From NCBI RefSeq assembly GCF_003334765.1, contig NZ_QOWT01000008.1: a stretch of DNA of 64,000 nucleotides. One strand, given 5' to 3'. The notes beneath the pieces were generated by a model. It ran no database searches. It was given only the letters and a program-made list of their open reading frames with translations, and was not told the DNA's origin. Positions 362 through 4,370 of this stretch are shown here, in pieces. The position numbers and the translations under genes are program-made. Each line of letters starts with the position of its first letter. Positions within the stretch are counted from its first letter, which is position 1. The stretch comes from Escherichia coli. GTDB lineage: Bacteria; Pseudomonadota; Gammaproteobacteria; Enterobacterales; Enterobacteriaceae.

Positions 362-736
<375 letters not shown>

Positions 737-1044
737 TTATGAGAATAAATACTCATTTAAGGGTGAAAACATTTTGCCTGCAAATGATTATCAGGAAATA
801 TAACATTATCGAAGTATTCAAATTAACAACTATTAAATAATATTAAACATTTTTAACGTAAACATTAAGAATATTCATCTTGTTATCTGTCTGTATTTTA
901 ACCAGAATTAAATCAGTATTAGATGCCGTATGAATATCTCGAAATGTTGCTGTGTATCACATACAAATCATCACCGCAGGACCATAGTATTTACATAAGA
1001 TTTGTCCCCCGGAGGTAGTCATCGCAGCAATCGAGTAAATTAGC

Positions 1045-1073
1045 TTCACCACGGTATATTGTTTCCGTAGAAT
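1045..1073 (+). promoter_or_regulatory. candidate sigma70 promoter for ypfM (-35 TTCACC, 17-nt spacer, -10 TAGAAT)
   Basis: Hexamers read directly in the AT-rich yffB-ypfM intergenic region about 25 nt upstream of the ypfM ATG. Confidence 0.35.
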
Positions 1074-1097
1074 ACCCATAATTATAAGAGAGGTTGT

Positions 1098-1157
1098 TAT
1101 GATTGAACGTGAACTGGGGAACTGGAAAGACTTTATCGAAGTTATGCTTCGTAAGTA
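1098..1157 (+). CDS. ypfM: 19-aa small protein YpfM (MIERELGNWKDFIEVMLRK)
   Basis: ATG at 1098 preceded by AGAGAGG; below ORF-track size cutoff; sequence matches my recollection of YpfM. Confidence 0.6.
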
Positions 1158-1223
1158 ATTCCTGAGACAAAGTACAAACAGCAAGAACCCGCTGAGCAGG
1201 TTCTTAATCGGAAAGTTGAAAAA

Positions 1224-1252
1224 GGCGACACATTGGCATGTCGCCTTTTTTA
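1224..1252. terminator. bidirectional intrinsic terminator (GGCGACA...TGTCGCC hairpin flanked by A-run and T-run)
   Basis: Hairpin 1224-1245 plus T-tract 1246-1252; sits between ypfM (+) and the acrD stop (-). Confidence 0.6.
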
Positions 1253-1256
1253 TTGC

Positions 1257-4200
1257 TTATTCCGGGCGCGGCTTCAGCGGGAAGCGGCGGCGCACCAGCA
1301 CAAAGAACAGCGGCACGAAGTAAATAGCCAGAATAGTGGCCGAAATCATCCCGCCCATTACGCCAGTACCCACCGCATGCTGACCACCGGAACCGGCACC
1401 CGTGCTGGTTGCCATTGGCAATACGCCGAAGATAAATGCCAGCGAGGTCATCAGAATCGGGCGTAAACGCTGACGGCAGGCGTGGAGCGTCGCTTCAAAC
1501 AGGTCGTGGCCTTTTTGGTTCATCTCGTTAGCAAACTCGACGATCAGGATGGCGTTTTTCGCCGATAAACCAATGACCGTTAACAGGCCCACCTGGAAGT
1601 AAACGTCGTTTTCCAGCCCGCGCATCCAGGTTGCCAGCAGCGCGCCGATTACCCCCAGCGGCACGACCAGCATTACCGAGAACGGCACCGACCAGCTTTC
1701 ATACAACGCAGCCAGACACAGGAATACCACCAGCAAGGAAATGGCGTACAGCGCCGGAGCCTGCGCGCCGGAAAGCCGCTCCTGATACGACATCGCCGTC
1801 CACTCCAGACCAAAGCCGTTTGGCAGCTGCTTCACTAACGATTCCATAATATCCATCGCCGTACCGGTACTGACCCCCGGTGCGGCTTCCCCAACAATCT
1901 CAACCGCAGAATAACCGTTATAGCGTTCCAGACGCGGCGAGCCTGTTTCCCAGCGTGAGGTCGCGAAAGCAGAGAAGGGCACCATGCCGCCATCTTTATT
2001 TCGGACATACCAGAGATTGATGTCATCTGGCAGCATGCGATACGGCGCAGCTGCCTGCACATAGACTTTCTTCACGCGACCGCGATCCATAAAGTCATTC
2101 ACATAGCTCGAACCCCAGGCGGTTTGCAGTGTGTCGTTAATATCGTCGATAGCAACGCCCAGCGCCTGAGCTTTACGCTGGTCGATATCAATCTGCAACT
2201 GCGGACTGTCGTCGAGGCCGTTATGGCGCACACGGGTTAGCTCCGGGTTTTCCGCCGCCAGCGCCAGCAACTGATTACTTGCTGCCATCAGCGCATCGTG
2301 ACCCGCTCCAGCGTGGTCCTGCAACTCCATATCAAAACCTGCAGAACTACCAAGACCGCTAATTGCTGGCGGGCTGCTGGCGATAACGCGAGCTTCTTTA
2401 ATTTGGTTAAACGCCTTCGTTGCACGCTCGATAATGGCAAACGAGGTGCCGGTCTTACTGTCGCGTTCGCTCCAGTCTTTCAGGCGGATAAACATTCGCG
2501 CCACGTTTTGCCCGTTACCCCCAGGGCCAGAACCAACGGTGGCAAACACCGACATGATGTTGTCTTTTTCATGGGTGAAGTAGTATTTCTCGATTTGCTC
2601 AACGACTTTCAGGGTCTGTTGTTGCGTTGAACCGCTGGGCAACTGTACCGAGGTAGTAAACATGCCACGGTCTTCCAGCGGTAAGAACGACGTCGGCAAA
2701 CGCAGGAACAGGAACACCATGCCGCCAAGCAGCAGGACATAAATCACAATCCAGCGCAGGCTACGGTGGAGAATTTTCGCCACCCCTTTTTCGTAGCGTT
2801 CGGCGTTGCGGTTAAACATCTGGTTAAACCAGGCAAAAAAGCCTTTTTGCCCATGATGCTCACCTTTTTTCAGTGGCTTAAGTAGTGTGGCACACAGAGC
2901 CGGAGTGAGGATCATCGCTACCAGTACTGACAGCACCATCGCCGCAACAATGGTAATAGAGAACTGGCGATAGATGGCACCGGTGGTGCCGCCGAAGAAG
3001 GCCATTGGTACAAATACCGCCGAAAGAACCATCGCAATCCCGACCAGTGCCCCCTGGATCTGCCCCATCGATTTACGTGTGGCTTCGCGAGGAGTGAGTC
3101 CTTCCTCACTCATAATACGTTCGACGTTTTCCACCACCACGATGGCGTCATCCACCAGCAGACCGATCGCCAGCACCATCGCGAACATGGTTAAGGTGTT
3201 GACGCTGTAACCGAAGGCGTAAAGTACGGAGAAGGTTCCCATCAACACCACCGGCACGGCGATAGTGGGTATCAGCGTGGCGCGGAAGTTTTGCAGGAAC
3301 AGATACATAACGAGGAAAACCAGAGCGATAGCTTCCAGCAGCGTTTTCACCACGTCTTCAATGGAGGCTTTAACAAACGAGGTGGTTTCATACGCCACCT
3401 TGTATTCCAGTCCATGCGGGAAATACTGCGCCAGCTCGTCGAGACGATTGAGCACCAGCTCCGCTGTCGCCATTTCGTTAGCGCCGGAGGCCAGTTTTAC
3501 CCCCAGCCCGGAGGCTGGCTTACCATTGAAGCGGCTAAGATAATCGTATTTCTCCGCCCCCATTTCGACGGTGGCGACATCGCCCAGCCTTACCTCTGAG
3601 CCGTCCTGATTGACCCGCAAGGTGATATCGCGGAACTGTTCTGGTGTTTGCAGCAGTGACTGGGCGTTAATGGTGGCGTTGAGCGCCTGCTTATCGACGG
3701 AAGGTGTACCACCAAGTTGCCCAACCGCAATCTGCGCGTTCTGTGACTCAATGGCATCAGTGACATCTTTAGCCGTCATCTGGAAACTGTTGAGTTTCGC
3801 CGGGTCCAGCCAGATACGCATGGAATATTGCGAACCATAGGCATCGATATCCCCGACGCCATTCACGCGGCTTAACGGGTCCTGAATATTACTGGCAACA
3901 TAATCAGCAATATCCTGTTTATCCATCGAACCATCGGTAGAGACGAAGGCAATGGTCAGAATGTTGGTATCGCCGGTTTTACGCACCGTCACGCCCTGAT
4001 TTTGCACCGCCTGCGGTAACTTTCGCATGGCTGATTGCAGCTGGTTTTGTACTTGCTGCACGGCTTCGTCCGGATCGGTGCCTGCTTTAAAACTTAAAGT
4101 GACAGATGCCTGACCGGTGCCACTGCTCTGAGATGACATATACATGAGATTATCGAGGCCGGTCATATTTTGCTCGATAACCTGGGTCACGGTGTTTTCC

Positions 4201-4370
4201 AGCGTCTGGGCCGATGCGCCGGGATAGTTAGCGGTCACTCGCACATTCGGTGGCGCGAGATCGGGGTATTGTTCAACGGGCAATGAAAAAATCGCCAGGG
4301 TACCTGTCAGACACAACAGGATTGCCAGCACCCAGGCAAAAATGGGGCGATCAATAAAGAAATTCGCCAT
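1257..4370 (-). CDS. acrD: RND-family aminoglycoside efflux pump AcrD
   Basis: 1037-aa ORF, 12-TM RND transporter recognised as AcrD; ATG at 4368-4370. Confidence 0.96.

Follow-up and report, generated by a model that had tools for sequence, protein, structure and literature searches.

The interval between yffB and acrD in Escherichia coli raises the question whether the short stretch next to acrD holds a small-protein gene, a regulatory RNA or both. A preliminary description, made from the letters of a stretch of 64,000 nucleotides of E. coli DNA (in the following the window), had proposed a self-contained transcription unit at this place, ypfM, with a promoter, a good ribosome-binding site, a 19-codon ORF and a bidirectional terminator, and had considered that its transcript might also act as a regulatory RNA near the 3' end of acrD. 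Our analysis identifies the feature as the already annotated ypfM, a monocistronic small-protein gene that is fully known. We estimate a probability of about 93% that the whole explanation of the locus is a gene that runs from a sigma-70 promoter over the ORF to a shared terminator and whose mRNA is a target of the sRNA ArcZ. The features of the locus are compiled in Table 1.

Table 1. Features of the ypfM locus, in positions of the window; a dot stands for features without a single strand.
Feature	Position	Strand	Characteristics and evidence
yffB (ArsC-family reductase), divergent upstream neighbour	362-718	-	118-aa ORF; b2471 in MG1655
AT-rich divergent intergenic region, yffB to ypfM promoter	719-1044	.	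326 bp; 30.4% GC compared to 52.8% in the whole window
Sigma-70 promoter	1045-1073	+	-35 TTCACC (1045-1050), 17-nt spacer, -10 TAGAAT (1068-1073); 9/12 consensus matches; consensus scan
5' leader with Shine-Dalgarno AAGAGAGG (1086-1093; GAGG 1090-1093)	1080-1098	+	5-nt spacer to ATG; identity 0.8-0.99 across Enterobacterales
ypfM CDS, 19 codons and TAA, MIERELGNWKDFIEVMLRK	1099-1158	+	Translation; b4606; NF033843; conservation; mass spectrometry
ArcZ pairing core ACUGGGGAA (pairs with ArcZ UUCCCUGGU, ArcZ 67-75)	1113-1121	+	+15 to +23, codons 5-8; CLASH, RIL-seq, duplex scan
Small hairpin GAAGUUAUGCUUC over the last ypfM codons	1138-1150	+	Helix 1 of the STnc250 model (Rfam); RNA fold
Variable 3'UTR including the extra hairpin 1183-1205	1159-1216	+	Conservation mostly 0-0.4
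Predicted bidirectional intrinsic terminator, ypfM (+) and acrD (-)	1217-1252	.	A5-GGCGACA...UGUCGCC-U6, 14 pairs
acrD (RND efflux permease), convergent downstream neighbour	1257-4370	-	1037-aa ORF; b2470

The ypfM gene and its expression signals

The first 5 kb of the window match E. coli K-12 MG1655 near 2.59 Mb in the opposite orientation, position p of the window corresponding to MG1655 position 2591965 - p. In this part, the minus strand carries the end of dapE, yffB, acrD and narQ in this order. MG1655 annotates ypfM (b4606, 'uncharacterized protein YpfM') exactly on the 19-codon ORF, and a comparison with this gene and with the NCBIfam family NF033843 revealed no difference, since the window contains the identical ORF, peptide, flanking yffB and acrD genes, promoter hexamers and terminator. 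The 601-bp ypfM region was found with at least 95% identity in all of the 5426 complete E. coli genomes searched, where PGAP labels the product 'protein YpfM'. The ORF had been regarded as easily missed, but RefSeq/PGAP annotates it routinely. Extended by one N-terminal residue, as queries must have at least 20 aa, the peptide matched the equivalog model NF033843 (small_YpfM) over profile positions 1-19 of 19 with 59.2 bits (E 2.4e-16, cutoff 33).

Taken by themselves, the pattern matches of the ypfM unit are not above chance level: one promoter-like site was found, compared to 2.2 in shuffled sequences, and the first 5 kb contain 72 ORFs with 20 aa or more. The unit stands above chance because it is conserved in 72 of 80 Enterobacterales species and because published experiments support it. 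For the comparison, we collected yffB neighbourhoods from the 80 species and identified ypfM ORFs by tblastn; in each of the 72 loci the ORF is divergent from yffB, and among the eight loci without a match, two (L048 and L070) have too little upstream sequence to judge. The gene lies between a divergent yffB and a convergent acrD in the window, in MG1655 and in the loci of these 72 species, with acrD missing from the neighbourhood only in two Dickeya species. The ORF has 19 codons in 68 loci and 20-30 codons in the other four, and the consensus of the peptide is M-[IV]-[ED]-x-E-[LMV]-[GND]-x-W-K-[DES]-F-I-[ED]-x-M-L-R-K. In 58 distinct ORF sequences, column entropy averaged 0.24, 0.25 and 0.72 at codon positions 1, 2 and 3, and such a peak at the third position is to be expected if ypfM is translated and under purifying selection. 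In a proteomics study from 2025, YpfM was detected intact by top-down mass spectrometry with 100% coverage and a formylated initiator methionine, and additionally by DIA and PRM; the same study cites an earlier detection by Schmidt et al. (PMC12529367). Hence the proposal of a self-contained unit corresponding to ypfM is borne out by the b4606 annotation, the NF033843 match, a published promoter and the experimental detection of both transcript and protein. In the predicted amphipathic helix of YpfM, the hydrophobic residues 2, 6, 9, 13 and 16 lie on one face, with a hydrophobic moment of 0.546 that was reached in 3.3% of shuffled sequences. From this helix model, YpfM may act by binding a partner protein via its hydrophobic face.

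The promoter, ribosome-binding site, ORF and terminator of the preliminary description were all recovered at the positions given in Table 1, and the AT-rich region of about 330 bp in front of them measures 326 bp. Shimada et al. (2014; PMC3946193) had assigned the same hexamers, TTCACC and TAGAAT at a distance of 17 nt, to the ypfM promoter, which lies under a peak of RpoD-holoenzyme SELEX in the spacer between ypfM and yffB, and located an H-NS site in this spacer as well. In the Enterobacterales alignment, CTTCAC of the -35 element and gTAGAAT of the -10 element form a footprint with 0.7-0.9 identity around an unconserved spacer. The promoter would place the transcription start near 1080. 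The Cappable-seq supplements contain no entry near MG1655 position 2590885 (2588907 in older coordinates), nor do the transcript-assembly supplements list ypfM. A transcript of about 150 nt had been expected; transcription from approximately 1080 to 1252 would yield a slightly longer RNA of about 175 nt.

The AT-rich region is most extreme in its core (719-950, 25.4% GC). Upstream of the promoter, three non-coding blocks are conserved across genera at 0.8-0.9 (52 distinct sequences), namely 935-962 (TTTCAAAATATTGCnGTnnGTCACAT), 983-990 (CCATAGT) and 1019-1030 (AATCACAGCAAT), and the first and third of them hold an imperfect inverted repeat in E. coli (ATTGCTGTG / CGCAGCAAT). None of the three blocks could be matched to a promoter or to the site of a known regulator. 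We considered the block 935-962 as a CRP-like site or a site for another regulator and rejected this because the half-site spacing does not fit. In some E. coli strains, IS1 is inserted at 919-928, with the same junction in 42 of the 5426 complete genomes; the insertion site borders the AT-rich core and falls within the spacer of the putative yffB promoter of Shimada et al. (2014). A single CLASH chimera of ChiX, labelled 'ypfM 5UTR', maps to 915-944 on the plus strand, about 130 nt upstream of the -35 element, and hints that the AT-rich region is to some extent transcribed on the plus strand or that an upstream start exists. In Salmonella Typhimurium, ChIP of MarA was reported to give a peak between ypfM and yffB (2594769-2594825) that contains a weak marbox (ACCCAATTTGATAAA; PMC10268841).

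Pairing of ArcZ with the ypfM coding sequence

Physical contacts between ArcZ and ypfM mRNA were recorded independently by CLASH and by RIL-seq. Hfq CLASH yielded 13 arcZ-ypfM hybrids in exponential and transition phase, with a minimum folding energy of -17.6 kcal/mol, an mRNA fragment (TATGATTGAACGTGAACTGGGGAACTGG) that corresponds to 1098-1125 of the window, and a flag for presence of the pair in RIL-seq as well (PMC7213987). According to the feature table of Bar et al. (2021), compiled from the RIL-seq data of Melamed 2016, 'ypfM CDS' is represented by 2829 chimeric fragments with a single partner, a SIC score of -0.69, which describes a mostly first, target-like member of the chimeras, and an sRNA score of 0.009 (PMC8175672). 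We read this partner as ArcZ, as its features (96 interactions, SIC 0.921422) equal those of the arcZ row exactly; ypfM then accounts for 2829 of the 28271 ArcZ chimeras, or approximately 10%, in exponential-phase RIL-seq. The separate entry 'ypfM.5UTR' has 140 chimeras, and its partner features match the row of the uhpT 3'UTR (PMC8175672). The supplements of the EPEC RIL-seq study do not list ypfM. One further CLASH chimera joins ypfM 1098-1133 to an RNA labelled 'pphA 5UTR', which is the sequence of the sRNA SdsR/RyeB (GCCAUUUCCCUGGACCGAAUACAGG...); SdsR/RyeB has the motif UUUCCCUGG in common with ArcZ.

When the duplex scan was restricted to the ArcZ seed, the best duplex fell on the pairing core in codons 5-8, the same place as in CLASH. 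Its energy is no better than that of random genomic segments, 97% of the background being as good, and the case for pairing therefore rests on the chimeras and on the codon pattern. A duplex calculated with the whole processed ArcZ was discarded as an artefact, as it paired terminator with terminator. Synonymous sites in codons 5-10 (1111-1128) are less variable than those in the rest of the ORF. The Gly7 codon is nearly always GGG, GGA in five sequences and never GGC or GGT. All of the Leu6 codons CTG, CTA, TTA and TTG maintain the pairing with ArcZ, with CTA turning a G.U wobble into an A-U pair, and CTC occurs only in Dickeya, where the ArcZ site is absent altogether. This synonymous-codon usage, seen in few and related sequences, is suggestive of selection on the contact between ArcZ and ypfM, but not more than that.

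Small RNAs can act within the first few codons of an mRNA. Since the ArcZ site is located at the downstream edge of the footprint of an initiating ribosome, binding of ArcZ would be expected to lower translation of ypfM, stability of its mRNA, or both. In the literature searched, we found no report of the regulatory outcome of ArcZ on ypfM.

A rival reading is that ypfM mRNA, besides or instead of being regulated, mainly sequesters ArcZ, and perhaps SdsR, in the manner of a sponge or decoy. We consider this improbable, although several observations point in its direction: a tenth of the ArcZ chimeras in exponential phase belong to a transcript that is short, abundant and stable, synonymous sites are constrained at the pairing site, and the SdsR chimera falls on the same site in ypfM. 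Given this share of chimeras and the synonymous constraint across genera, ypfM mRNA could act as an abundant, conserved decoy controlling how much free ArcZ (and SdsR) is available. However, an abundant ordinary target would give rise to equally high chimera counts, no effect of ypfM dosage on ArcZ activity has been reported, and the strong purifying selection on the peptide marks coding clearly as a primary function.

The predicted shared terminator and the relation to STnc250

Between the ypfM stop codon and acrD, conservation is confined to the terminator. The terminator hairpin, flanked by A5 and T6, is separated by 4 nt from the acrD stop codon (1257-1259, minus strand) and appears as a strong hairpin in folds of both strands, with a hairpin followed by UUUUU on the minus strand; the fold of the whole ypfM transcript has a z-score of -3.3. 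It lies between ypfM and acrD in various genera; its stems are 0.8-0.99 identical in the Enterobacterales alignment and occur, among others, in the variants GGCGAC/GTCGCC, GGCGGC/GCCGCC, GGCAGC/GCTGCC and AGCGAC/GTCGCT. When 45 distinct terminator sequences were aligned, 95% of the cells were paired, a value inflated by the selection of the sequences with a hairpin finder. The compensatory changes at homologous positions are still informative: they were found for 9 of 12 pairs, and none of 500 shuffles reached the observed values. The two Dickeya species without an adjacent acrD have kept ypfM with a terminator of its own, in which the upstream A-tract is reduced to AAA, and this would fit a function of the A-tract in termination of acrD.

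The length of the 3'UTR varies between 33 and 88 nt among species. In E. coli it contains the stable hairpin 1183-1205, which Salmonella and Citrobacter lack. On the minus strand this hairpin is terminator-like as well, so that two tandem hairpins follow acrD.

The terminator region also connects the E. coli gene to STnc250 of Salmonella. Sittka et al. (2008; PMC2515195) equated STnc250 with the small ypfM mRNA that Wassarman et al. (2001) had predicted and observed a weak, 4-fold enrichment in Hfq co-immunoprecipitation and a northern band of about 220 nt, the abundance of which depended on the growth phase. In RNA-seq of S. Typhi, STnc250 was the most abundant among the mapped Hfq-associated RNAs of this set (PMC2704369). 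The proximal promoter and the terminator of the Salmonella locus (L058, 1956-2049) predict a transcript of about 146 nt, and in view of the band at about 220 nt, a second, upstream start may therefore exist. We tried to place such a promoter on the conserved CCATAGTAT block (985-990, with a start near 997), but neither strand offers an acceptable -35 element at a distance of 16-19 nt, and no site is called there by the scan.

The full Rfam model RF01409 (STnc250, 'Hfq binding RNA') aligns to 1138-1257 with 37.5 bits (E 1.9e-5), below the gathering threshold of 42. At the orthologous loci, the scores were 122.2 bits in Salmonella, 81.5 and 50.1 bits in two Citrobacter species and 42.9-44.4 bits in Yokenella, E. 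albertii and Enterobacter. In E. coli, the match lies at the orthologous position, beginning in the last codons of ypfM and reaching to the terminator. It shares with the model the helix of the terminator and the first hairpin, whereas about 24 nt in the 3'UTR, including the hairpin 1183-1205, are additional. By its position, the E. coli copy is a diverged orthologue of STnc250, although it formally remains below threshold. The Rfam label 'sRNA' for STnc250 is outdated, given that its first description already speaks of a small mRNA (PMC2515195). Unrelated Rfam matches were obtained in Dickeya for a fluoride riboswitch and for a cspA thermoregulator, both close to ypfM (L074, 694-755 and 1223-1588), and for a REP-like naRNA4 element in E. 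albertii (L004, 4266-4346). YpfM differs from MgtS, a membrane protein with a role in Mg2+ homeostasis, in that it is not hydrophobic (mean Eisenberg hydrophobicity -0.12). The genes themselves resemble each other, as yneM/mgtS (STnc570), like ypfM, is a short intergenic unit of an orphan promoter and its terminator that came out of sRNA screens and Hfq co-immunoprecipitation and turned out later to encode a very small protein (PMC2515195).

Following the suggestion of a regulatory RNA in the preliminary description, we considered that the ypfM transcript might additionally be a base-pairing or antisense regulator, with the convergent acrD mRNA as one conceivable target. For such a role speak the Rfam entry of the Salmonella orthologue as an Hfq-binding RNA with its match in the window, the enrichment of the Salmonella RNA with Hfq, the sRNA-like end composed of a GC hairpin and U6, a U-tail of the kind that can bind the proximal face of Hfq, and the sharing of the terminator with acrD, by which the 3' ends of the two RNAs are complementary over about 35 nt. 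However, outside the terminator the 3'UTR (1160-1216) is as variable as indicated in Table 1 and offers no conserved seed, and the only conserved non-coding parts of the transcript are the leader with the ribosome-binding site and the terminator stems. The overlap with the acrD transcript is limited to the hairpin, which is self-paired in both RNAs, and Dickeya retains ypfM and its terminator without acrD alongside. The target prediction against acrD mRNA that had been suggested, run on the acrD start region, revealed no special complementarity: the interaction reached -20.5 kcal/mol compared to -24.8 +/- 3.7 kcal/mol for 44 other gene starts and was thus worse than most in the window. The RIL-seq features with a single partner are those of a target and not of an sRNA (PMC8175672), and it was Sittka et al. 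themselves who moved STnc250 to the small mRNAs (PMC2515195). SgrS/SgrT, a dual-function sRNA, is comparable in being short, associated with Hfq, ended by an intrinsic terminator and provided with a small ORF. However, SgrS has many targets and, beyond its ORF, a conserved seed, whereas no conserved seed exists in the non-coding parts of ypfM RNA, whose behaviour in RIL-seq is that of a target. The suggested action as a regulatory RNA near the acrD 3' end hence receives no support, ypfM RNA being a target of sRNAs and not a regulator, and we regard an additional antisense function as very unlikely. That the 19-codon ORF is a chance frame inside a non-coding Hfq-binding sRNA, as the frequency of short ORFs in the first 5 kb and the Rfam entry type might suggest, is refuted and has next to no probability in view of the third-position variation, the maintenance of ORF length and sequence across Enterobacterales families, the strong and conserved ribosome-binding site, the curated NF033843 equivalog and the detection of the intact formylated peptide by mass spectrometry (PMC12529367).

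Expression and significance of ypfM

The gene, its transcript and protein, its conservation, the structure of the terminator and the physical chimeras of ArcZ and ypfM are established by the present analysis or by the literature. With ypfM as a small-protein gene and sRNA target, expression can be pictured as follows. The sigma-70 promoter would drive synthesis of a monocistronic mRNA of about 175 nt, with a leader that carries a strong Shine-Dalgarno sequence, and the 19-codon ORF is translated into the conserved peptide. Transcription would end at the hairpin between the A- and U-tracts, which would also terminate the convergent acrD transcript. The mRNA is bound by Hfq and targeted by Hfq-dependent sRNAs, chiefly ArcZ, and pairing of the conserved ArcZ seed with codons 5-8 would reduce translation, mRNA stability or both, the direction of this effect being deduced from the position of the site.

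The recovery of ypfM demonstrates that reading a sequence alone can bring to light a genuine gene of 19 codons. It adds nothing new to the knowledge of ypfM itself, which was annotated, had been detected as transcript and protein and has a published promoter. A modest new point is that the synonymous codons at the ArcZ site preserve the pairing across genera. If ypfM mRNA were indeed a decoy for ArcZ, expression of ypfM would be linked to the RpoS and ArcB circuitry, and a coding mRNA would have a second role as a sponge.
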